Below, piece after piece: positions 9,051-46,646 of a DNA stretch of 64,000 bases; position 1 is the first letter of the stretch; every line of letters starts with the position of its first letter. A program made the translations under genes and the position numbers. This DNA is from Terriglobia bacterium (GTDB lineage Bacteria > Acidobacteriota > Thermoanaerobaculia > Thermoanaerobaculales > Thermoanaerobaculaceae). A model generated the notes under the pieces. That model did not search any database, was not told the DNA's origin, and saw only the letters and a program-made list of their open reading frames with translations. The DNA lies in assembly GCA_020073245.1 (NCBI GenBank), contig JAIQFQ010000004.1, positions 24,181 to 88,180 on the forward strand, given 5' to 3'.

Positions 9051-9237
9051 CTGGGGGTGGAGGAAGCGAGTCGAGGGTAGGGCACCCAGTTACGAGTCAA
9101 GGGTGAAGAGTTAGAGGCAAACATGTGGAGACCATGCACCGCTGGCCAGATTCAACGCAGCAACGGCGACGGGACCCTTCGTCTTCGACTCTTCACTCTC
9201 AACTCTTGGCTCTTCGCTCGATCCTGAGCTTTGAGCC
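9051..9237. repeat. Purine-block / pyrimidine-block heptad dyad element, copy E
   Basis: GA-rich arm about 9055-9122 (ggaggaagcgagtcGAGGGTAgggc...gagtcaagggtgaagagttagaggcaaac). About 50-nt mixed spacer. CT-rich arm about 9175-9237 (cccttcgtcttcgactcttcactctcaactcttggctcttcgctcg...). GTGAAGAGT is present in the left arm and as its reverse complement in the right arm. Confidence 0.5.
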
Positions 9238-9347
9238 TGCCGGTTTTGATCCGGGCGACGCCCCGGGCCATCAAACTCCCACGACCTCCTAGGTGGGTCG
9301 CGAACTGGGCGGTATACTCGCCCGGCTTGGGGGTCGGAGGGCCGGCC

Positions 9348-10984
<1,637 letters not shown>

Positions 10985-32534: not shown

Positions 32535-32687
32535 GCGCGGCAGGCGGCGCTGCCACGCCCCTCATCACACCTCGTCCGCGTTCCGGTGATGTGCGGTGGG
32601 GAATGGACTTAGCCCCCAAGCCGTTTGGGTTTGACACGGATTCCACGACCGCGTGCGGTGGGGTCCGCGAGGGGGCTGCACCTGACG

Positions 32688-33755
32688 ATGGCGGCCAAGC
32701 CCACAGAGTTCGCGCTGACGCTGACCCCGAGGTCGCGCTACGACGCCATCGACGTCGCGGCCGCGATACGGCAGGATTTCGGCGATGCTCTCGCCGGCTT
32801 CCGGCGGGCGATGTACTGCTCGCTCCACACCACAGCTGGCTACCTTGAGCAGAGCCTCTCGGCGCGCCTCGATCACCGTCGTGACCGGCTGGATCCGTTC
32901 ATGCGGACGTTCCAAGCGCTGTTCCCCCCGGGGGCGGGGTACCGTCACGACCAACTCCACGAGCGCTCCGAGCTCTCCGAGGCTCAACGGCGCTGTGAGC
33001 CGAAGAACGCGGACTCGCACCTCGCGTACATCGGCTCCGGGTTGCGCAACTGCGTGACGTACGTCAACCGGCCGGGCGAGCCGGTTTTCTTCATGGATCT
33101 CGACGGTGTCAACGATGGGCATTTCCGGACCCGGCGGACCTGCGTCCTGGCGTACAGCCGCGCGGAGACCGTCGCGACGGTACGTTGCGAGATCCCCGTG
33201 TCCCGGCACCCCATCGACTCGGTCAACCTCGCGGACCAGCGAACCGGAATCCTCGCCCACGGCGAGGAACTGATTCGGCGCCACGGCGTGGAGAAGGGAC
33301 GACTCGAGATCACCCTCGACCCCAGCGAGCGCGATGCCGGGGTGACGGTCAACGAGTACGAGACGCTCCTGATGCGACACGACCTCGCGGAGGTGCTCGC
33401 CGATCCTCTGAAGTTCGCGGCTCGAACGGGCAAGCGGATTCTGCGTGACCCGCGGGCGATCGCGACCAAGAGCCTTGGGTACGCCCGCTACGACATGGTC
33501 CAGGTGCTCAACGAGCTCATGGACGCGTTGCGGATTTCGGAGTCGGCGGTCGAGAGGCTGCTTGCTCGGGCGATGGCGGTCCCTGCGCGGCGCTTCCTGC
33601 GCCTCAAGCGTGGCGTGAGTTTGCCGGTGTCCGACGGTCCGGGTTCCGGCGGCGGCGTGGTGCGCGGGACCTACCAGAACCCGATCTTGATCCAGTGGGC
33701 CACGGCACCCCACAACAGCCGCACGATCCTCCTCCGGCTCACGAGATTCAGCTAG
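32688..33755 (+). CDS. YjbQ/UPF0047-like domain protein with about 200-aa C-terminal extension
   Basis: ATG 32688 within tracked ORF 32625..33755. YDAIDVAAAI...AMYCSLHTTAGYLEQ and PKNADSHLAYIGSG match the HTTA and NA.(A/S)HL motifs of YjbQ-type proteins. About 355 aa in total versus about 140 aa for the canonical family. Confidence 0.5.
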   Translation: MAAKPTEFALTLTPRSRYDAIDVAAAIRQDFGDALAGFRRAMYCSLHTTAGYLEQSLSARLDHRRDRLDPFMRTFQALFPPGAGYRHDQLHERSELSEAQRRCEPKNADSHLAYIGSGLRNCVTYVNRPGEPVFFMDLDGVNDGHFRTRRTCVLAYSRAETVATVRCEIPVSRHPIDSVNLADQRTGILAHGEELIRRHGVEKGRLEITLDPSERDAGVTVNEYETLLMRHDLAEVLADPLKFAARTGKRILRDPRAIATKSLGYARYDMVQVLNELMDALRISESAVERLLARAMAVPARRFLRLKRGVSLPVSDGPGSGGGVVRGTYQNPILIQWATAPHNSRTILLRLTRFS

Positions 33756-34600: not shown

Positions 34601-34737
34601 GGGTAAAAGGTCAAAGGTAAGAGGGTAGACGGGAGACGGAAGAGGGAAATCGTTAAAGGGCAAACGGAAGCCAAGGTCACCCGTTGTCTTTCCTCTACCT
34701 TCTACCCTCTTCCCTTCCTCTCTTTGCCACCTTGAGG
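34601..34737. repeat. Purine-block / pyrimidine-block heptad dyad element, copy B
   Basis: Ten consecutive heptads at 34607-34676: AAGGTCA AAGGTAA GAGGGTA GACGGGA GACGGAA GAGGGAA ATCGTTA AAGGGCA AACGGAA GCCAAGG. Short centre, then the CT-rich arm 34686-34737. Its reverse complement reads ...AAGGGAA GAGGGTA GAAGGTA GAGGAAA. Confidence 0.6.
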
Positions 34738-34767
34738 CCGAGAGCGGGCGGGTGTAACGTCGGGCCA

Positions 34768-36051
34768 ATGGAACCCACGCTCCTGCAACAGCTCGCGGCT
34801 CTGACCCACCCGGAAGCGCTCAAGATACTGCTGGTCCTGTTCCTCTCGTTCCTCCTTGGCCTCGAGCGCGAGGGCCGCAAGGCGCACGCCGGGCACTACA
34901 TCTTCGGCGGCGTCCGCACCTTCCCGCTGATCGGTCTCGTCGGGTACGCGATGGCGCTCGTCGCCGGCCAGCAACTCCTGTCCGTGGCGCTCGGGTTCGT
35001 GGTCGTCGGGGCGTTCCTCCTGGTCTCCTACCTGCACAAGCTCGCGAGCTCCGAGGACGCTGGCGTCACCACGGAGGTGTCCGGCCTCGTCACCTACCTG
35101 CTTGGCGCCGTTGTCTGCTACGGCTACTACTGGATCGCGGTCACCATCGTCGTCCTCGCGATGCTCCTGCTCGAGCTCAAGGCCGCCCTCGAGGGGCTCA
35201 CCGAGCGGATCCCGTCCGAGGATGTCGTGACCTTCACCAAGTTCCTTCTGCTCACCGTCGTGATCCTGCCGGCCGTGCCGAACCGCGAGTTCGGGTCGTT
35301 CCTGATCAACCCGTTCCGGACATGGATCATCGTCATCGCGGTGAGCGGGATCTCATACGGCAGCTACGTCCTGCAACGTGTTACGCGGAAGCGCGGCGGG
35401 GTCGTGCTGGCGGCCCTGCTCGGCGGGGCCTACTCGTCGACCGTCATGACCGTCGCTCTGGCGCGTCGGGCGCGCCGCGAGCACCGCCCCAACCTGTTCG
35501 CGGGCAGCATGGTGCTGGCTTCGGGTGTGATGTACCTGAGAGTGCTGGCCCTGCTCGCCATCTTCAACGGCGCCCTCGCGGGACGAGTCGCGCTGCCGTT
35601 CGTGGCCCTGGGTGTTGGGACGATGCTCGGCGGGTATCTCTGGTCGCGCGTTCCGGACCCGGTGCAGGGTCCGGTTGAGCGCGAGTACGAGGCGAAGAAC
35701 CCGCTCGAGGTTCGGTCGGCGTTCCTCTTCGCGGCCGTCTTCCTGGCGATCATGGTCGTGACGAGGCTTGCCGTCGAGCGCTTCGGCACCGTCGGGATCG
35801 TGGCGCTCGCCGCGCTCATGGGGGTGAGCGACGTGGACCCGTTCATCATGGGCCTGACGCAGACGGCGGTGTCGGCGACGCTTCTGGCCACCGCCGCTGC
35901 TGCGGTCGTCGTGGCCACCGCCAGCAACAACGCGATCAAGGGGATCTACGCGTACGCCTTCGCGGACCGTGCGACGGGCGTCCGGGGTCTCGCGGCGCTC
36001 CTTCTGCTCGCCGCGATCGGTCTCCTGCCGCTGCTGGTCCTTGCCCCGTAG
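34768..36051 (+). CDS. MgtC/SapB-family membrane protein with DUF4010 C-terminal domain
   Basis: ATG 34768 within tracked ORF 34684..36051. LGLEREGRKAHAGHYIFGGVRTFPLIG at the N-terminus. Polytopic throughout (427 aa). Confidence 0.8.
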   Translation: MEPTLLQQLAALTHPEALKILLVLFLSFLLGLEREGRKAHAGHYIFGGVRTFPLIGLVGYAMALVAGQQLLSVALGFVVVGAFLLVSYLHKLASSEDAGVTTEVSGLVTYLLGAVVCYGYYWIAVTIVVLAMLLLELKAALEGLTERIPSEDVVTFTKFLLLTVVILPAVPNREFGSFLINPFRTWIIVIAVSGISYGSYVLQRVTRKRGGVVLAALLGGAYSSTVMTVALARRARREHRPNLFAGSMVLASGVMYLRVLALLAIFNGALAGRVALPFVALGVGTMLGGYLWSRVPDPVQGPVEREYEAKNPLEVRSAFLFAAVFLAIMVVTRLAVERFGTVGIVALAALMGVSDVDPFIMGLTQTAVSATLLATAAAAVVVATASNNAIKGIYAYAFADRATGVRGLAALLLLAAIGLLPLLVLAP

Positions 36052-36131: not shown

Positions 36132-37649
36132 TCAGGTTCCCCCGCGCCGGAGATGGCGTCTGAGCGTCCCCGCCACGCTCCCGTCCGGGAAGAGCAGGGT
36201 TGCGTCCTCGAACGTTGCCGAGAGCGGGGTTCCCGAAGCGTCGCCGATCGCGCGCGCCACGGGCTGATCGGATAGCACCACAATGGCGGTCGGCCTTGGA
36301 GCCGTCGATGGCGTCTCGAACGTCACGACGACCAACTCGTAGTCACCTTGAGGGAACGCCTGGCCGGCAGGGAGTGTGAGGGTGATCCCGAGGCGGCCGT
36401 CTCCGGCCTCGGAGTCGTCGACCACCAAGGTGGCCGCCACTCCACCACTCCCCAACGTGACGACGGGGGCGCTCAGCATGGTGGGATCGAACGCGAGGCT
36501 GAAGCGCACCTCGTGCTCGTCGCCCAACGCCGACATCACGATCGGGAGGGCGATCTGAGAGCCGGGATTCACGGACGGAGCAACGGCGCGCACCACGCGC
36601 GGCCCCAAAACCGCCGTCACGGTGAAGAACTGGGTGAAGGCCATCCCGTCCTGGCTGGTCGCGGAAAACGTGACGTGTCCCTCCTGCGAGGCGCGAGCCA
36701 ACCCGGCCGCGGCCACGGTGACGGCGGGTTGCGTCGCGATGCCCGCCTCGTCCGGGGTGAGGACGAGCCATGGCACATCGGAGACCGCGGTCCAGTGGAG
36801 GGTGTAAGGGCCCACGAGCGTGACGGGGATCGTGCGGTCGACGGGGTGACCGGAGTCCACACCGACGGGGACCGTCGACGGCGTAACCGTCAGGCCGGCA
36901 GGTCGCGCGACCGCCGCCTGCAACATGTCGTACGCCGTACCCGGTCCGGGGACGTAGTCGGTCAGCACGACCGTGTGGAGCGCGTTCCACGTGACACCGG
37001 AGAGGGTGTTCGTGGTGAGCGTGGCGGTGTAGACGCCGCCCGGCGCGAGCGCCGACACGATGTCGATCCACGGAGCGGCCCTCATGATGCGACCCGTGAC
37101 GCCGACGTATGCGTCCTCGTAGACCAGCGCGTGGAGCGCCGCCTGGTTCGCGGAGGCCGAGAGCGTCGCGGCGCTGGTGTTGTGGAACCGTGCGTACACC
37201 CGCATCCGCGTCCCGACCTGGCGCGCGTACGCCTCGATCTCCGCTTGGGGCGGGCGGGTCAACTCGGGGTCCACGAGCCTCTGAAAGGCTGTCTTGAAGT
37301 CACCCTGGTCCCCGGTGAGGACCCGATTCCCGGAGTCTACGATCACGAGGGGCAGGTATGCCGTCGAGTCGCCGAAGGCGGCCCAGAACCGGCTCATTCG
37401 GTTGCCGATCGGCGCATCCACGTTCTGCTCGATGAAGACGGCGCGCCCCCCGTACTGGAGGCCAAGCGCGTCGACCGCCGGACCGGCGGCCTGGCAGATC
37501 GGTCAGGTGAACCGGGTGAAGTCCTCGAACACCACGAGGCGGGTGCCGGGGTCAGTGGGGGAGCTCTCCTGCGCCGCGGCGATGCTCGCCACTCCGGCAA
37601 GCGCCAGGGCTCCGAGAAGGCACGCCGGCCATCGTCGTACCGTCGCCAT
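36132..37649 (-). CDS. Secreted thioredoxin-fold protein with in-frame UGA at the CxxC position (candidate selenoprotein, or else a pseudogene), with cohesin-like C-terminal domain
   Basis: ATG 37649 (GAGGTG SD), then signal peptide MATVRRWPACLLGALALAGVASIAAAQ, then RLVVFEDFTRFT-[TGA at 37505-37503]-PICQAAGPAVDALGLQYGGRAVFIEQNVD, continuing in frame into tracked ORF 36132..37421. An LPLVIVDSG cis-Pro-like loop follows. The C-terminus (EVRFSLAFDPTML...LGITLTLPAG) looks cohesin/Ig-like. Confidence 0.6.
37473..37491 (-). promoter_or_regulatory. SECIS-like stem-loop 11 nt downstream of the in-frame UGA
   Basis: mRNA: UGA-ccgaucugcca-G GCCGCC GGUCC GGCGGU C. This is a 7-8 bp GC stem (one G-U pair) with a 5-nt loop containing GGU, read directly from the reverse complement of 37473-37491. 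Confidence 0.45.
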
Positions 37650-37924
37650 CACCGCACCTCGCGCCCCATTTCACAATTAAACTGCCGGCGATGCAAGCTT
37701 TGCGCTCCGGCAGAAGAAATGGAACGTCCATGCCAGCCTCGTTTGCGGGTCCCCGCATCGCCTGCCTGCGCCTCCGGCACTGCCCGATGCGCGTGCTAGA
37801 CTGCGCGCCGTGAGCTCGCCGCTGGGTCTTCTCTCAACCCCAATGTTGCGGCCAGCCACCACGTCGCTGTTTGCGTTGCATCGCGTTGTAGCTGGCCCGA
37901 TGTAGCCGGGAGGGCAAACCGCAG

Positions 37925-39061: not shown

Positions 39062-39685
39062 CTAGGAACTCTTGAGGATGATCGTCTCGATGGTGTTCGC
39101 AACGTCCTCGCAGCGATCGGTCGCATCCTCGAGGAAGGCGTACAGGTCCTTGAGCTTGAGGACATCGATCGCGTTCGGCGTGTTGGCGAAGAGGTCGCCG
39201 AGCGCCTCGCGGTGCAGGACGTCGGCCTCGTTTTCGAGGCGGTTGATCTCGACGCAAGCGACCATCGCCTCCTTGTGCTTCTTGCTGTCGTGGAGGACAA
39301 CGACGGCTTTGTGGACCTCCTCGGCAGAAGTAACCAGCAGATCGGCAAGGGATTTCAACTGGCGCGGCACCTGGGTGATGTGGTAGACAACGAGGCGCTG
39401 CGCCGCAGCATCAGCCGAGTCGAGGATGTCATCGAGGCGGGTCGCCAGTGAATGGATGTCCTCGCGGTCGAAGGGGGTGATGAAGGTGGCGTTCAGCTTC
39501 GCCAGGGCCTCGTGAGTGATGCGGTCACCCTCGTGCTCGAGCTCCTTCAGCCTCTCGACCTTGGCTGGGAAGTCAGTGGGATCCTCGAGGAGCTCACGGA
39601 AGAGCTTGACCCCCTGGACGATGTTGGCCGATGCACGGTCGAAGAGATCGAGGAAGTCAACCTTCTTGGGCAGGAACCAGCGCAT
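39062..39685 (-). CDS. DUF47-family protein (PhoU-like, YkaA/TIGR00153-type phosphate transport regulator)
   Basis: ATG 39685 within tracked ORF 39062..39715. MRWFLPKKVDFLDLF..., ELEHEGDRITHE, FITPFDREDIH, LENEADVL are typical of DUF47. Confidence 0.88.
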   Translation of the reverse strand: MRWFLPKKVDFLDLFDRASANIVQGVKLFRELLEDPTDFPAKVERLKELEHEGDRITHEALAKLNATFITPFDREDIHSLATRLDDILDSADAAAQRLVVYHITQVPRQLKSLADLLVTSAEEVHKAVVVLHDSKKHKEAMVACVEINRLENEADVLHREALGDLFANTPNAIDVLKLKDLYAFLEDATDRCEDVANTIETIILKSS

Positions 39686-39719
39686 GCGACCCCCGATTGT
39701 GCCGGCGCGACACAAGCGG

Positions 39720-39725
39720 ATTATA
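39720..39725 (-). promoter_or_regulatory. Perfect TATAAT -10 hexamer upstream of the DUF47 gene
   Basis: Minus-strand reading TATAAT, followed by 34 nt that end in GGGGGtcgc, then ATG 39685. No convincing -35 at 17 bp. Confidence 0.4.
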
Positions 39726-39869
39726 GACCTACTGCGCCGATCGGCCCGTCAACGCCGTGACGGGAACAACTGGTTCCGAGGAGCCGCTGACGGATGGGAC
39801 CTCTTGTCCGGGGCGCGGGCGGCTGCAGCTCGCTCCGACTGCGGCGATAATCATCTGGGGGTCGAAACC

Positions 39870-42848
39870 ATGACCGCTTGGGACAGACCGGACGGACTCT
39901 CGGAGTACGACCCGACGCACACGGTGCTCCGCGACCTGATGGGGTATCGGGTGCGCGAGGTACTGCTCGTGTCCTCGCTGTACGACTCGTACATCCTCGA
40001 GGAGGACGGCCAGCTCTCGGAGAGCCTCGATGCCGAGTTCTACCAGCTGAACCTCTCGACGGCGCCCCGCATCACCCAGGTCTCAACGGCCCAGGAGGCG
40101 CTGGCGACGTTGCAGAGGCGGCCGTTCGACCTGGTGATCACGATGCCCCGACTGGGTGGGATGGATGTCAAGGCGTTCGCCCGCGCCGTCAAGGGGCTCC
40201 ACCCCGACCTTCCGGTCGTCATGCTCGCCGACAACCACTTCGAGGCGCACCGGGTCAAGGAGCTCAATGAGCCAGGGATGCTCGACCAGGTGTTCGTGTG
40301 GCGCGGCGACGTGGCACTGTTCCTCGCGATCATCAAGTACATCGAGGACCGCCGCAACGTACGGCGCGACACCTCCCTCGCCAGCGTACGCACCATCATC
40401 CTGGTCGAGAACTCGGTGCGCTTCTACTCCGCCTACCTCCCGCTGCTGTACACGGAGCTCACGGCCCAGACGCACGCGCTGATGGCGGATGGGGTCAACG
40501 CGCGCCAGCGTCTTAGGCGGATGAAAGCGCGCGCCAAGATTCTGCTCGCCGAGACGTTCGAGGAAGGGTGGGCACTGTTCGACGAGTTCCGTGCGACGAC
40601 GCTTGGAATCATCACCGATGCCCGCTTTCCGAGGGGGGGCGAGAGCGACCCCGAGGCCGGCCTCGAGTTCGTGCGCCGGGTCAAGGCCGAGGACCCGGAT
40701 ATGCCTGCGCTCCTCCAGTCCACGGACGAGACGCTCGAGGAGCGCGCCCACGCTCTCGGTGCCGCGTTTCTGCACAAGCACTCGCCGCGACTGCTCGAGG
40801 AGCTGCGGCGCTTCATGCGCTCCAATCTGGGGTTCGGCGACTTCGTCTTCCTCGACCCGGTAACGGGGGCGGAGGTGGCTCGCGTCTCCGACCTCGGCGG
40901 GATGCCGCGAGCGCTCCGGGCGGTGCCAGGGGAGTCGCTTCGCTATCACGCCTCCCGCAACCACTTCTCAAACTGGTGCATGGCTCGCACCGAGTTCGCC
41001 CTCGCAGCACGAATCAGGCCCTGGAAGGTCTCGGACTTCAAGGATGTGGAGGAGTTGCGTTCGTACCTCATCGATGCGTTCGCCGAACTCCAGTCGGAAG
41101 CACGTCGCGGCGTGGTCGCCGACTTCACCCCACGGGAGTTCGAGGGACTAGCTGGCTTCGTGCGGATCGGCGCGGGTTCAATGGGGGGCAAAGGGCGCGG
41201 CCTCGGGTTCATCAACTCGTTGTTGTCGCGCGAGGAGGTGACCGAGGACGGGGTTCGCGCTGCGGTTCCGCCCGCCGCTGTCATCGGCACCGATGTCTTC
41301 GATGACTTCCTTCGGATGAGAGGCCTCCTCGCGCTTGCGCTGTCGGACGCGAGCGATCGGGCGATCGAAGACGCGTTCCTCGCCGCGCCGCTGCCGCCGG
41401 CCCTCGAGCGCGACCTCTGGGCGATCGTCGAACGCACGTCGGTGCCGCTGGCCGTGCGGTCGTCGAGCCTACTGGAGGACTCCTACGACCAGCCGTTCGC
41501 CGGGATCTACCGCACCCTGATGCTCGCCAACGGCGACCCCGACCCGGCCGTGCGACACGCTGAGCTTTCGGCCGCGGTGAAACTGGTGTACGCCTCGACG
41601 TTCTCGAGAAGCGCGAAGGCGTACCTCGCAAACACCCCGCACCGCCCCGAGGAGGAAAAGATGGCGGTGGTGGTGCAGCGGGTCGTCGGGCGCAGCCACG
41701 GAAGGTTCTTCTACCCGTCGTTCGCCGGTGTGGCGTGCTCGCGCAACTACTACCCGGTGCTCGGACTCAAGGCGGAGGAGGGTCTGGCCGCCGTGGCGCT
41801 CGGCTTCGGGAAGACGGTGGTCGAGGGCGGACGAGCCGTGCGCTTCTCCCCGGGCTCGCCTGGAAACGTACCGCAGTTCGCCTCGACCGCCGCCGTGTTG
41901 GAGACGGCCCAGCGCGAGTTTGTGGCGCTCGACCTCGAGCGTGTCGGTACCGTTGGGGGCAGCGACCATACCGACGCGCTCGTGGTGCTCGGGCTCGCCG
42001 AGGCCGAGCACCACGGCACGCTCCACCCGCTCGGTTCCGTCTACTCGCCCGACAACGACGCGATCTACGACGGCGTGTCCCGACCCGGGATTCGCGTCGT
42101 GACGTTCGCCCCCATCCTCAAGACCGACGTGTTTCCGCTCTCCCGTCTCCTCACGCGGCTGCTGTCGCTCGGGGAGCGGGCGATGAGCTGTCCGGTTGAG
42201 GTCGAGTTTGCGGTCAACCTGCCGTCGCGCGGGGAGCCGGGGGAGCTCGCGGTGCTGCAGGTGCGCCCGCTCGTGGTAGAGGTGGGCAGCGAGGACCTCG
42301 ACGCGATCCTGCGCGTCACCACCCACGACGACATCTTCTGTCTCTCGGAACAAGCGCTCGGGGAGGGGCGCGTGCAGGGCATCCGGGACGTCGTGTACGT
42401 CAGACCCTCGGCGTTTGACCGCTCCCAGACGCCGGCGGTCGCGGTGGAGGTGGAGGAGATCAACCGAACCCTCGCCGAGGAGGGACGTCCCTACCTGCTG
42501 ATCGGACCCGGGCGGTGGGGGACATCGGACCAGTGGCTAGGGGTTCCCGTGGAATGGGACCAGATCGCGGGTGCTCGGGTCATCCTTGAGACCGAACTCG
42601 ACGACGTGCCGGTGACGCCTTCCGAGGGCACGCACTTCTTCCAGAACATCACCTCGTTCGGGATCGGTTACCTCACCGTGCACCGACGCGGCGGCAGAGG
42701 CCGCGTTGATTTCGACTGGCTGGATGGCCTGTCAGCCAGCACCCAGACGCGCTTCCTGCGGCACGTCAGGCTTGAGCGGCCCCTGGACGTCCGCATCGAC
42801 GGCCGATCCGGACGCGGCATCGTGCTCAAGACCCCGTTCGGCCTCTGA
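39870..42848 (+). CDS. REC-like domain + PEP/pyruvate-binding (PPDK_N-type) domain protein
   Basis: ATG 39870 within tracked ORF 39516..42848 (992 aa). N-terminal receiver-like fold (REVLLVSSLYD..., FDLVITMPRLGGMDV, VVMLAD). The central SMGGKGRGLGF...LAVRSSSLLEDSYDQPFAGIY region is characteristic of the ATP-grasp PEP/pyruvate-binding domain of PEP synthase/PPDK relatives. C-terminal GPGRWGTSD...PSEGTHFFQN. Confidence 0.8.
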   Translation: MTAWDRPDGLSEYDPTHTVLRDLMGYRVREVLLVSSLYDSYILEEDGQLSESLDAEFYQLNLSTAPRITQVSTAQEALATLQRRPFDLVITMPRLGGMDVKAFARAVKGLHPDLPVVMLADNHFEAHRVKELNEPGMLDQVFVWRGDVALFLAIIKYIEDRRNVRRDTSLASVRTIILVENSVRFYSAYLPLLYTELTAQTHALMADGVNARQRLRRMKARAKILLAETFEEGWALFDEFRATTLGIITDARFPRGGESDPEAGLEFVRRVKAEDPDMPALLQSTDETLEERAHALGAAFLHKHSPRLLEELRRFMRSNLGFGDFVFLDPVTGAEVARVSDLGGMPRALRAVPGESLRYHASRNHFSNWCMARTEFALAARIRPWKVSDFKDVEELRSYLIDAFAELQSEARRGVVADFTPREFEGLAGFVRIGAGSMGGKGRGLGFINSLLSREEVTEDGVRAAVPPAAVIGTDVFDDFLRMRGLLALALSDASDRAIEDAFLAAPLPPALERDLWAIVERTSVPLAVRSSSLLEDSYDQPFAGIYRTLMLANGDPDPAVRHAELSAAVKLVYASTFSRSAKAYLANTPHRPEEEKMAVVVQRVVGRSHGRFFYPSFAGVACSRNYYPVLGLKAEEGLAAVALGFGKTVVEGGRAVRFSPGSPGNVPQFASTAAVLETAQREFVALDLERVGTVGGSDHTDALVVLGLAEAEHHGTLHPLGSVYSPDNDAIYDGVSRPGIRVVTFAPILKTDVFPLSRLLTRLLSLGERAMSCPVEVEFAVNLPSRGEPGELAVLQVRPLVVEVGSEDLDAILRVTTHDDIFCLSEQALGEGRVQGIRDVVYVRPSAFDRSQTPAVAVEVEEINRTLAEEGRPYLLIGPGRWGTSDQWLGVPVEWDQIAGARVILETELDDVPVTPSEGTHFFQNITSFGIGYLTVHRRGGRGRVDFDWLDGLSASTQTRFLRHVRLERPLDVRIDGRSGRGIVLKTPFGL

Positions 42849-43232: not shown

Positions 43233-43796
43233 CTACTTGGCGGCGGGAGCCGGAGGCACTGGGTCCGGGACGTGGTTCTTGATTGGGGGTACCGTTCTCA
43301 GGTAGGCGTAGATCGCCTTGAGGTCCTCGTCCGTCATCTTCCCGACCCAGTTCCACGGCATCGGTGGGAGAATCTCCCGCCCGCCGCCGAAGTGCTGGCC
43401 CGTCCTCATCGCCTTGATGAAGTTCTCCTCCGAGAGAGCGCCGAGCCCCGTCTCGGAGTCGGGCGTGAGGTTGCTCGTGTAGCTGATCCCCCACGGCCCG
43501 GCCCACGCCGTCATGGTCAGCGCCGCGACCGCCCCCCACGGCCCCGGCGGCAGTGCAGGAGGCGGCGGGAACTTCATGGCCTCCGGGTGACCGGAAAGCA
43601 TTCGGGCCATGTCGGGTTCGGGGCCCTTCTCGCCGAGCTTCCAGGGTGTGTGGCAGTCGTTACACCCCCCGACCGTGACGAGGTACTTCCCGTGCTCGGC
43701 CGGCGACTGCGCGGCTACGGTCGACCGCGGCTGCTGGCACGCGGCGGCCGCGACGCACATCATTGTGAGGCCTGCGAGTGGTGTCCTCAACCTCAT
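43233..43796 (-). CDS. c-type cytochrome (single CxxCH), exported
   Basis: 187 aa. Signal/lipobox-like MMCVAAAAC, heme motif GGCNDCH. Distal PPMPW region may supply the Met ligand. Confidence 0.8.
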   Translation of the reverse strand: MRLRTPLAGLTMMCVAAAACQQPRSTVAAQSPAEHGKYLVTVGGCNDCHTPWKLGEKGPEPDMARMLSGHPEAMKFPPPPALPPGPWGAVAALTMTAWAGPWGISYTSNLTPDSETGLGALSEENFIKAMRTGQHFGGGREILPPMPWNWVGKMTDEDLKAIYAYLRTVPPIKNHVPDPVPPAPAAK

Positions 43797-43954
43797 CTCT
43801 GCTCTTCCTCCTGATTATGACATTGAAACGCAGTCTACATATCAGGATCGGTTTGTCAAGCGTTTGCAACGGGCCGGCGCATCCTCGTGTTACGATCCCA
43901 CGGCGCCGGACCCGTCGGCGCCACACACCTTTTGCGCGAAGGGGCGGAACGGAC

Positions 43955-45136
43955 ATGGAGCTGCCAATCGGCGCTGGCACGGTCATCTACCTCGACAACG
44001 CCGCCACCACCTTTCCGAAACCAAAAGAGGTGCTGGATCAGATGCTCGAGGTCTACTGCCGGTACGGAGTGAACCCGGGCCGCTCCGGCTACGACCTCTG
44101 CCTGATGGCGGGCGAGCTCGTCGCCGACACCCGTAAGGCGCTGACGCGGCTCTTCGGCGGCTCCGACCCGAACCGCCTGGTGTTCGCCTCCAACGCGACC
44201 GACGCGCTCAACCTCCTCATCCAGGGAGTGCTGAGCGAAGGCGACCACGCGGTCTCGACCACAATCGAGCACAACTCGGTGATCCGTCCCTTGAACCACA
44301 TGGCGCGCGACCGCGGGGTCGAGGTGGACTTCGTGCCGGTTGAGGCGGGTGGCCGGGTGGACCCACGGGCGATCGCGAAGCGGTTGCGGCCGAACACCCG
44401 GCTGGTCGTCGTCAACCACGGCTCGAACGTGATCGGCACGATCCAGCCGGTGGGGGAGATCGGGAGGCTGTGCCGTGCCCGCGGTGTGACGTTCGCGGTC
44501 GACACCGCCCAGACGGCAGGCGTGGTGCCGATCGACATGCAGACCATGTGTATCGATGTCGTCGCGTTCACCGGGCACAAGTCGCTCTTGGCGCCGACGG
44601 GGATCGGCGGCCTGTGTGTCGGGGACGCGGTCGACATCCGGCCCACGCGGTTCGGCGGAACGGGCGTCAACTCCGTGGCCCCGTACCACCTCGAGGAGTA
44701 CCCATACCGCCTCGAGGCCGGCACCGGCAACGTACTCGGCATCGCGGGGCTGCACTTCGGGCAGGCGTACATCGCGAAGCGCGGCCTCGACGCGATCTAC
44801 CGGCACGAGATGGCGCTCTTCTCCCGCCTCCAGGACGGGCTGGCGGCGATCGACGGCGTGACCCTGCACGGGGCGACCGGACTCAAGGACCGACTGCCTG
44901 TCCTCTCGTTTACGGTGGCCGGGCGGGACCCGGCCGACGTCGGCACGCTCCTCGACGTCGAGTACAACATCGCCGCGCGCACGGGCCTGCAGTGCGCCCC
45001 TCTCATCCATCGCCAGATGGGGACCGAAGCCCGGGGCACCGTGCGGCTGTCCGTCGGCCCGTTGAACACCGAGAGTGACATCGAGGCCGCGATCGCGGCG
45101 GTGACCGAGATCGCCACCGAAGCACGGGTCTCGTAG
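43955..45136 (+). CDS. Class-V aminotransferase, cysteine desulfurase / selenocysteine lyase family
   Basis: ATG 43955 within tracked ORF 43778..45136. IYLDNAATTFPKP, FASNATDALN, FTGHKSLLAPTGIGGL (PLP-Lys context). Confidence 0.88.
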   Translation: MELPIGAGTVIYLDNAATTFPKPKEVLDQMLEVYCRYGVNPGRSGYDLCLMAGELVADTRKALTRLFGGSDPNRLVFASNATDALNLLIQGVLSEGDHAVSTTIEHNSVIRPLNHMARDRGVEVDFVPVEAGGRVDPRAIAKRLRPNTRLVVVNHGSNVIGTIQPVGEIGRLCRARGVTFAVDTAQTAGVVPIDMQTMCIDVVAFTGHKSLLAPTGIGGLCVGDAVDIRPTRFGGTGVNSVAPYHLEEYPYRLEAGTGNVLGIAGLHFGQAYIAKRGLDAIYRHEMALFSRLQDGLAAIDGVTLHGATGLKDRLPVLSFTVAGRDPADVGTLLDVEYNIAARTGLQCAPLIHRQMGTEARGTVRLSVGPLNTESDIEAAIAAVTEIATEARVS

Positions 45137-45329: not shown

Positions 45330-46646
45330 TCAAGGTGCGGGCTGGCCCGGGAGGACGAGGGCATCCGCGACGATCTCGGCGAGAGTTCTCACCTCGACGC
45401 CGAGCTTGTAGAAGCGGTTCAACTCCATGAGCTGGTCGATGCAGTTGTGGCAGGGCGACGCAACCACCTTGGCACCCGTCGCACGGATCTGCTCGGCCTT
45501 GATGCGACCTGCCTCGATCCGCTTGGCGGCGTGCTCGGACGCAGCCAACATGCCGCCGCCGCCACCACAGCAGTAGTTGTCCTCGCGGTTGGGAACCATC
45601 TCGACGAAGTCGGCCGCTCCAGCCCGCAAGAGAACCCTCTGCTCCTCGATCACGCCGCCGTTGCGAACGAGATTGCAGGGATCGTGCAGCGTGATTCGGT
45701 CGGCGTTCTTAGTCGGGTCGAGACGGAGAAGCCCGTGGTCGACGTACTCCGCCATTACCTCGACCAAGCTGCTGACCTTGAACGGGAGGGGCCGGCCGAG
45801 CCACTCCGGTGCTTCCCACCTGAGCGCCCGGTACCCATGACCGCACTCGGCCACGACGAGTTCCTCGACTCCCAGCTCTTCGGCCCGCGCGATAAGACGT
45901 TCGGCGATCGCCCGTGCGGCGGCGGCATCGGCCGCGAAGTACCCGTAGTTCGTGATGTCGAAATCGGTTGACGTTAGCGTCCAGTCCTCGCCGGCGACGT
46001 GGAAGATCGTCGCGGCGGCCGAAAGCGACAGGGGGAAGAACTTCACCTCTCGGGGGTTGACCGCGTAGAGGACACGCGCCCCGTAACGATCGATCGGCAT
46101 CGCTGCCGCCGGATCGCCAAGGGTGTCCCGCAGGTCCTGCTCCAGCCAGGCCACCGTCTCCAGGACGTTCTCGCGCGAGATCCCCATGTTGTTGCCGGTC
46201 TCGAGTGCGAGATCGGCGTTCGCGCGGATCCCCTTGGGCACCATGCCGGCGGCGCCCAGCACCGTGCGGGCGAAGCGAATGATCGTTGATGGGTCGAGAC
46301 CGACACTGCAGTTGAGGGCGCAACGGCCGCAGAGCGTGCAGCGCCCGAACGCGGCGGCCGCGAGTCCCTCCAGCGCCTCCAGGTCAAGGTTCTGCGCGCC
46401 CACGAAGCCAGGCGTCAGGCGGCCGAGCAGCGTGTGGTACCGGCGAAAGAGGCGGGCGACGCGCTCCACCTTGTGCGCCGGCATCGACTCGGATTCGGAA
46501 TCCGCCAGGAACACGTGGCAGGTGTCGGCACACAGGCCGCACCTCACGCACGAGTTGAGGAACGCGGTCGTGCGGGCGTCGAGTCGCCCGCGCAGTACCG
46601 CGAGGGCGCGTTCCACGGCTCCCGCGCCGGCCGACGGCTCAGCCAT
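45330..46646 (-). CDS. HdrD/DsrK-family iron-sulfur protein (2x[4Fe-4S] ferredoxin + CCG domains)
   Basis: 438 aa. CVRCGLCADTCHV and CTLCGRCALNCSV ferredoxin motifs. C-terminal CCG-type motifs HDPCNLVRNG...NYCCGGGGG...SPCHNCIDQ. Confidence 0.85.
   Translation of the reverse strand: MAEPSAGAGAVERALAVLRGRLDARTTAFLNSCVRCGLCADTCHVFLADSESESMPAHKVERVARLFRRYHTLLGRLTPGFVGAQNLDLEALEGLAAAAFGRCTLCGRCALNCSVGLDPSTIIRFARTVLGAAGMVPKGIRANADLALETGNNMGISRENVLETVAWLEQDLRDTLGDPAAAMPIDRYGARVLYAVNPREVKFFPLSLSAAATIFHVAGEDWTLTSTDFDITNYGYFAADAAAARAIAERLIARAEELGVEELVVAECGHGYRALRWEAPEWLGRPLPFKVSSLVEVMAEYVDHGLLRLDPTKNADRITLHDPCNLVRNGGVIEEQRVLLRAGAADFVEMVPNREDNYCCGGGGGMLAASEHAAKRIEAGRIKAEQIRATGAKVVASPCHNCIDQLMELNRFYKLGVEVRTLAEIVADALVLPGQPAP

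Follow-up and report, generated by a model that had tools for sequence, protein, structure and literature searches.

Among bacterial selenoproteins no kind is commoner than the thioredoxin-fold proteins with a UxxC motif, in which U stands for selenocysteine (Sec); some of their families are exported (PMC13188914). A catalogue from 2026 lists 119 prokaryotic selenoprotein families (PMC13188914, Table 1), and the same work provides a general model of the bacterial selenocysteine insertion sequence (bSECIS) with four constraints. New selenoprotein families are recognised by four criteria: homologues with TGA, homologues with Cys, conserved flanks and a bSECIS (PMC12013277). In other Acidobacteriota the use of Sec is documented (PMC1794560, PMC12013277, PMC13582414). 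Here we study a DNA stretch of 64,000 nucleotides (nt) from a member of the Thermoanaerobaculaceae (Terriglobia bacterium, assembly GCA_020073245.1, contig JAIQFQ010000004.1, positions 24,181 to 88,180 of the forward strand). Below, the whole stretch is called the window, and all positions in it are counted from its first letter. The minus-strand region 37649..36132 is very probably a selenoprotein gene, predicted to encode an exported protein of 504 residues; we put the probability of this reading at roughly 0.87. The reading follows from four observations: the frame around the UGA is conserved, Cys alternates exist, a SECIS-type hairpin is present, and the U takes the nucleophilic position of a thioredoxin-like CxxC motif.

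When translated, the minus strand from 37649 to 36132 forms a single frame of 505 codons with one internal TGA, MATVRRWPACLLGALALAGVASIAAAQESSPTDPGTRLVVFEDFTRFT-[UGA]-PICQAAGPAVDAL... The frame starts with an ATG (37649-37647) and ends with a TGA (36134-36132); in the sequence a Shine-Dalgarno-like GAGGTG (37655..37660, minus strand) stands before the ATG with a spacer of 5 nt. The complete gene (36132..37649) thus comprises 504 residues and a stop, with the internal TGA (37503..37505) as residue 49, and the frame is kept on either side of this TGA in 24 related genomes. In the N-terminal region of the product a putative signal peptide is followed by RLVVFEDFTRFT-[UGA]-PIC, and the tryptic peptide across the Sec site would be FT-U-PICQAAGPAVDALGLQYGGR. 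A mechanical list of open reading frames (ORFs) holds two separate pieces at this place, 36132..37421 (429 aa, GTG start) and a 49-aa piece at 37503..37652. A preliminary description of this DNA had proposed a start at ATG 37649 with its GAGGTG, a single TGA at 37505-37503, and an ORF at 36132..37421 with a short upstream piece; the translation and the ORF list agree with it on all these points. It had also assigned the candidate to the UxxC thioredoxin-fold selenoproteins as a known bacterial class, in line with the literature (PMC13188914). TGA terminates the window gene and 12 of the 24 other orthologues, so it is an ordinary stop in these organisms.

DNA was fetched for 24 species-representative genomes that encode relatives (L001-L024) and was translated upstream in frame. 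At the identical codon 22 of the 24 genomes have TGA, and the remaining two have a codon for Cys, TGC in L017 and TGT in L021. Contigs with the TGA form include CAVTZQ010000006.1 (1.6 Mb) and CAVWFZ010000021.1, and the genomes with the Cys form are JAZBOQ01 and CAZXMW01. This answers the question raised in the preliminary description, whether homologues carry TGA or Cys at this codon. The genomes with the TGA form belong to Thermoanaerobaculaceae, Thermoanaerobaculales, Thermoanaerobaculia and Holophagae, together with one Anaerolineales. Protein-level conservation continues up to the codon and directly past it: the residues R-L-V-V-F-E-x-F-x-R before the stop are conserved in 24/24 genomes, six residues (R, L, V, E, F, R) within the 14 codons that lead up to it do not vary among relatives whose domains share 38-82% identity with that of the window, and directly 3' of the Sec site PxCxxAG is conserved. 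The Anaerolineales genome (L015, a metagenome-assembled genome in a Chloroflexota bin; 9992-10041) has the Sec form, as T-U-G-S-C, and the stem of its hairpin shows compensatory changes. This may reflect lateral transfer or a binning error.

In the protein databases the entries are truncated, since gene callers end at the UGA. The annotation pipelines of NCBI, JGI and ENA put the stop at the TGA, and the entry P0001 has 421 aa. When databases were searched with the whole protein, U being written as C, 69 relatives were found, all from metagenome bins of Acidobacteria/Thermoanaerobaculaceae type. All 69 have at most 455 residues, and in none of them are the first 49 residues represented. They are named 'hypothetical protein', 'cohesin domain-containing protein' or 'Viral BACON domain'. 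Three of them start with 'MCQAAGP', two codons past the TGA position, and in general the called starts are inconsistent (MCQ.., MAAGP.., VADAL.., MQYAG.., MDAP.., MSRF..). Homologues that begin at GTG 37421 had been considered in advance as a sign against a selenoprotein, but no true start is found there, and the upstream DNA is conserved as protein.

The relatives show two architectures. In group a (the window and L001-L015) a signal peptide is followed by the thioredoxin-like domain, a beta-sandwich and a BACON-like domain; a cohesin-like domain is found in the window and L001-L014, while L015 is shorter, with 313 codons after the TGA. In group b (L016-L024) the signal peptide is followed by a beta-sandwich of about 240 residues, then by the thioredoxin-like domain and a beta-sandwich of the group-a type, so that the Sec module comes after a beta-sandwich and the frame extends about 270 codons upstream of the TGA. 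Examples of this sister architecture are L016-L024 (in L017 at about 9100-10600) and the database entries P0120, P0128, P0155 and P0182. When a Cys form of group b is used as query, at least 64 clusters break off precisely in front of the site, after ...F-x-S-[FL]-x-R-P-G, and about 14 full-length clusters read through as CP[VI]C with Cys274 and Cys277 invariant. Both residues are invariant in the Cys homologues P0070-P0082, and P0190 has CGIC at the redox site. With a profile of only the thioredoxin-like domain, no members were gained outside these lineages and no named relative was found.

Two side observations can be added. One relative, P0222, has Gly at the Sec/Cys position (FGRPN-G-AFC) and is presumably a redox-inactive variant. 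Further, the group-b beta-sandwich of about 240 residues also forms the C-terminus, ending in VDNxSGDxxFIPA, of many larger proteins that are secreted and contain PKD, Kelch or NHL repeats.

A SECIS-type hairpin, which the preliminary description had suggested looking for, is present at 37473..37491 on the minus strand, 11 nt (37502-37492) past the UGA. Its 5' arm is GGCCGCC (37491-37485), its loop GGUCC (37484-37480) and its 3' arm GGCGGUC (37479-37473). The stem thus has 7 base pairs; RNAalifold finds the same helix with an eighth pair, and the loop is then GUC. With a minimum free energy of -13.4 kcal/mol, a distance of 18-19 nt from UGA to loop, a stem of 7-8 base pairs and a loop of 3-5 nt (G-GU-C-C), the hairpin lies within all four published bSECIS constraints (PMC13188914). 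Of the 1424 TGAs in the window, a simple bSECIS rule set accepts 3.9%, or 0.5% if a free energy of at most -12 kcal/mol is also required. At gathering thresholds no Rfam family matches anywhere in the window, and a permissive Rfam scan around the site returned chance hits alone and no SECIS family.

The comparison of 25 sequences shows that the helix is conserved as a helix. In the alignment 96% of the cells are paired, against 86% in column shuffles, and none of 500 shuffles reaches 96%; as a control, sliding the partner by 1-3 columns gives 23-63%. Compensatory changes are seen in three pairs and 13 cells, which 0/500 shuffles match: G-C/C-G in columns 15-33, C-G/G-C/U-A in 17-31 and C-G/U-A in 18-30. 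Further, in a codon alignment of 15 group-a genes the synonymous identity over Q-A-A-G-P-A, the codons of the hairpin, is 1.00, compared with a gene mean of 0.589, and this is the highest of 119 windows along the alignment. The glycine codon in the hairpin is invariably GGT, in genes that favour GGC and GGG. That synonymous changes are suppressed in this way indicates that the RNA itself is under selection. Taken together, the TGA and Cys homologues, the conserved flanks and the bSECIS cover all four criteria of PMC12013277.

Residues 1-27 (MATVRRWPACLLGALALAGVASIAAAQ; 37569..37649, minus strand) read as a signal peptide, with a basic n-region, a hydrophobic core and an A-x-A-like end, and equivalent N-termini are found in relatives of both architectures. 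From these features we infer that the N-terminus is a signal peptide of the Sec (secretory) type, and the export signal suspected earlier is in agreement with this.

The thioredoxin-like domain spans residues 36-133 approximately (37251..37544, minus strand). It contains the redox motif U49-P-I-C52, in the context F-x-R-x-[TG]-U-P-[IV]-C, and an invariant YLPLV loop, putatively of the cis-Pro type. When a profile of 18 members is compared with the PDB, all matches listed have the thioredoxin fold (chiefly thioredoxins, with glutaredoxins and DsbA), the best being 6zom_A with E=1.2e-4, and in the alignment the U/C column falls on the leading Cys of WCGPC. This is the position of the UxxC motif in which the preliminary description had placed Sec. 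A second profile search of the PDB, with full Cys forms, gave thioredoxins and, among the matches listed, one unrelated chain at E=0.98. Individual members match Glrx-like, Glutaredoxin, Thioredoxin, AhpC-TSA and DUF1223 in Pfam below the gathering score, DUF1223 in 5/18.

AlphaFold (AF2) models were used for a natural Cys form, P0070, and for the window protein downstream of the UGA. The P0070 model has a mean predicted local distance difference test score (pLDDT) of 77.7. Its order is strand 264-270, Cys274, helix 275-290, strand 296-302, helix 307-318, strand 328-330 and helix 344-356. Cys274 is located one residue before helix 275-290, strand 328-330 follows YLPLV, and a beta-sandwich comes after the domain. 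At 320-324 and 333-341 the pLDDT is below 50 and the last strand is not resolved in the model; the order of secondary structures fits beta-alpha-beta-alpha-beta(-beta)-alpha.

A place in the DsbA family was considered and rejected: in the P0070 model a single helix lies between strand 2 and the loop of putative cis-Pro type, so that the helical insertion is missing, and the Pfam matches do not include DSBA. Of the earlier assignment to DsbA/thioredoxin-like proteins the thioredoxin part, better described as thioredoxin/glutaredoxin-like, thus stands, while the DsbA part falls.

The rest of the protein is a series of beta domains, all on the minus strand. In the model of the window protein after the UGA (mean pLDDT 88.6) a beta-sandwich, an Ig-like domain and a C-terminal domain are seen. 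The beta-sandwich, at residues 134-250 approximately (36900..37250), always follows the thioredoxin-like domain, in both architectures, and it ends the group-b proteins; its AF2 strands lie at post-TGA residues 87-198, mostly with pLDDT above 90. Next comes a BACON-like Ig domain at residues 253-334 (36648..36893), for which Pfam BACON_2 has E=0.051, below the cut-off, and many homologues have a precomputed match to PF19190. The C-terminal domain, at residues 350-486 approximately (36192..36602), has a cohesin fold in the predicted model. Here Foldseek finds 6kgd_A (template modelling (TM) score 0.80, root-mean-square deviation (rmsd) 2.7), 6kge_A (0.81) and 1aoh_B (0.78), and over several cohesin structures the domain gives TM scores of 0.76-0.81 and an rmsd of 2.6-3.8 Å. 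Pfam Cohesin has E=0.0092, below the cut-off, and several homologues match PF00963. With whole multidomain models the Foldseek matches to the beta-sandwich dominate and the thioredoxin domain is not reported; Foldseek was informative for the cohesin fold only. The proposed fusion to Ig/cohesin-like modules is thereby borne out, as a BACON-like Ig domain and a cohesin fold. No dockerin partner turned up, in analyses that included no search aimed at dockerins. The protein ends in a basic tail (36135..36191) of low pLDDT with the motif [PV]-R-R-H-L, which is conserved throughout group a; the tail has no match to known sorting signals.

A number of observations weigh against a selenoprotein. Neither the genes selA, selB and selD nor a tRNA-Sec turned up in the window and the 24 loci, which together make up about 0.5 Mb. 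This was studied by tblastn with SelA, SelB and SelD queries validated against NCBIfam, and by ARAGORN, which found no tRNA of any kind in the same sequences; the preliminary description had likewise seen no sel genes in the window. Among the papers that were searched, none links Thermoanaerobaculia to selenocysteine. The sequence matches to the thioredoxin family are marginal (the PDB match at E=1.2e-4, every Pfam match below its cut-off), and the thioredoxin-like domain is modelled with lower confidence than the remaining protein. As to the hairpin, the fold of the single sequence is unexceptional for G+C-rich DNA (z = -0.15 against shuffles), so that the case for it rests on comparison, and its conservation could in part be due to the conserved peptide AAGPA. 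Finally, the Cys form L017 (9995-10044) retains the full hairpin with the loop GGUAC, which suggests a recent change from Sec to Cys. In the other Cys form, L021 (9995-10044), the stem is retained and the loop is GAGGC.

Two further results can be added. Scans for other selenoprotein genes, by split ORFs with a bSECIS and by known Sec motifs, gave off-frame low-complexity artefacts alone. The class-V aminotransferase that the preliminary description had pointed to (ORF 43778-45136, plus strand) belongs to the cysteine desulfurase family TIGR01977, with 422 bits against a cut-off of 377. With the model of the selenocysteine lyase SclA it scores 319 against a cut-off of 525. Its membership in the desulfurase family is therefore retained and that of a selenocysteine lyase is not, and the gene is at most a hint.

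If the gene is read as proposed, a ribosome that reaches the UGA at 37505-37503 would meet the hairpin 11 nt downstream, which by analogy with fdhF of E. coli would recruit SelB with GTP and Sec-tRNA(Sec). Sec would then be inserted in a SelB-dependent manner and translation would proceed, with no termination by RF2. In the folded protein Sec would stand where helix 1 begins, in place of the nucleophilic Cys of CxxC, which is the N-terminal and exposed one of the two, and the mature protein, outside the cytoplasm, would act as a selenol/thiol-disulfide oxidoreductase that cycles through a selenenylsulfide. The Ig and cohesin modules would hold or dock the protein to a partner in the envelope or at the surface. 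A more specific proposal, which we consider improbable, is that the cohesin module docks the selenoprotein, and perhaps other secreted proteins of these Acidobacteriota, in a multiprotein assembly at the surface. Such an assembly might carry out extracellular Sec-based redox chemistry, for example against oxidants or in the handling of sulfur, selenium or metal substrates.

The explanation that competes best with this one concerns the chemistry and accepts the selenoprotein itself: the UxxC motif might bind or handle a metal or metalloid at the cell surface, such as Cu, Hg, As or Se/S species, and take no part in disulfide exchange. Several catalogued UxxC/CxxU selenoproteins are indeed metal-handling proteins (PMC13188914, Table 1), there is weak similarity to secreted thioredoxin-like families (NCBIfam Omp28 with E=0.049, and Pfam DUF1223 in 5/18 members), and no reductant partner of DsbD/CcdA type is seen adjoining the gene. 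However, the invariant loop of putative cis-Pro type is typical of catalytic thiol-disulfide oxidoreductases, and the neighbourhood has no link to metal resistance; the conserved neighbour is an MgtC/DUF4010 gene on the opposite strand, in an order that is found in 9 related genomes only. We hold metal handling to be a possible but rather unlikely function.

Much less likely is that the UGA is recoded to a residue other than Sec. It could be read as Cys by a tRNA-Cys(UCA) that resembles tRNA-Sec, with a SelB paralogue (selC*/selB*), or by an acidobacterial allo-tRNA that acts as opal suppressor, and the hairpin would then serve this system or slow termination. A selC* tRNA-Cys with an opal anticodon and a second SelB have been described, and unusual allo-tRNAs, possible nonsense suppressors included, are frequent in Acidobacteria (PMC5389517); moreover, natural homologues show that Cys is tolerated at the site. 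On the other hand, selC* is reported in Firmicutes, Thermodesulfobacteria, Nitrospirae and Proteobacteria but not in Acidobacteria, and always together with a complete Sec system (PMC5389517), and no such tRNA is found in the window or the 24 loci. A plain TGC would be a cheaper way to encode Cys, and that TGA and hairpin are kept across orders argues for a benefit of Sec.

That the TGA is a true stop, in a pseudogene, by an assembly error, or between two genes (a 48-codon leader ORF and a cohesin-domain gene from about 37421/37397 without redox centre), is what the three annotation pipelines assume and would suit the ordinary use of TGA as stop in these genomes, but it is the least credible explanation of all, as the same TGA occurs in 22 independent assemblies and dozens of metagenome clusters, conservation of the protein crosses it, the Cys forms are continuous, the downstream starts are inconsistent, and a downstream product would begin inside the thioredoxin fold, without strand 1 and signal peptide.

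The genes around the putative selenoprotein gene are an unannotated gene of 403 aa upstream, a convergent MgtC/DUF4010 gene and a receiver-PPDK_N fusion. The MgtC/DUF4010 membrane protein (34684-36051, plus strand) keeps its convergent arrangement in L004, L006 and L008-L014; this gene order, shared with 9 related genomes, most simply reflects common ancestry, and the neighbourhood is uninformative for function. The fusion (39516-42848, plus strand) is a protein of 1110 aa with a response-regulator receiver and PPDK_N, an AMP/ATP-binding domain of the pyruvate-phosphate-dikinase type, and it adjoins the locus in L004, L009 and L011. Further away, 45330-46646 on the minus strand encodes an iron-sulfur (CCG-type) protein similar to HmcF/TmcB/DsrK, for which all equivalog matches are below their cut-offs. 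Two long ORFs at 32565-33755 overlap in opposite orientation. Of these the one on the plus strand (32625-33755) is 86-87% identical in L004 and L010, compared with 66% for the opposite one, and is by this measure probably the real gene of the pair.

A few consequences follow if the gene is a selenoprotein gene. A well-supported selenoprotein family is added to a poorly studied, uncultured lineage of soils and sediments, Thermoanaerobaculia and relatives, and in this lineage the Sec forms of the family far outnumber its Cys forms. More than 100 database entries would be truncated mis-annotations, which one family model could correct. A large, multidomain and probably surface-associated selenoprotein provides a handle on what makes Sec preferable to Cys outside the cytoplasm, under oxidising conditions. 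In addition, the strongly conserved hairpin offers a clean example of a SECIS in a phylum where the recognition between SelB and SECIS is uncharacterised. Should the assembly docked by cohesins be real, it would be the first cohesin-scaffolded extracellular selenoenzyme system.

Compared with the SECIS of E. coli fdhF, the hairpin of the window has the same position, 11 nt after the UGA. It differs in that no bulged U is visible in the upper stem, and the stem sequences are unrelated. With DsbA the protein would share the character of an exported CxxC thiol-disulfide oxidoreductase, and DsbA chains are among the weak profile matches (E ~0.07), but the inserted helical domain of DsbA is missing in the family model. 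The C-terminal domain superposes on the cohesins of cellulosomal scaffoldins (1AOH, 6KGD) with the TM scores given above; however, the identity is 10-20%, the Pfam Cohesin score of the window protein is below the cut-off, and neither the organism nor the context is cellulosomal.

The closest likeness is to the thioredoxin-fold UxxC families. As in these, a CxxC motif at the start of helix 1 has Sec for its first Cys, Cys homologues exist, a bSECIS follows the UGA, and export is a feature of some. No Pfam or NCBIfam model of the catalogued families reaches its cut-off, in a comparison that covers the families defined by Pfam or NCBIfam models; in NCBIfam release 20 the window protein matches two models only, FlgD (E=0.14) and, over the redox motif, the Omp28 lipoprotein model (E=0.049). 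By this comparison the family is previously uncatalogued, of a kind already common in bacteria and not surprising in principle. What sets it apart is that the protein described here is no small redoxin but a multidomain protein of 504 residues with a beta-sandwich, a BACON-like domain and a cohesin-fold domain. For a selenoprotein, such a size and the presence of cohesin and BACON modules are unusual.

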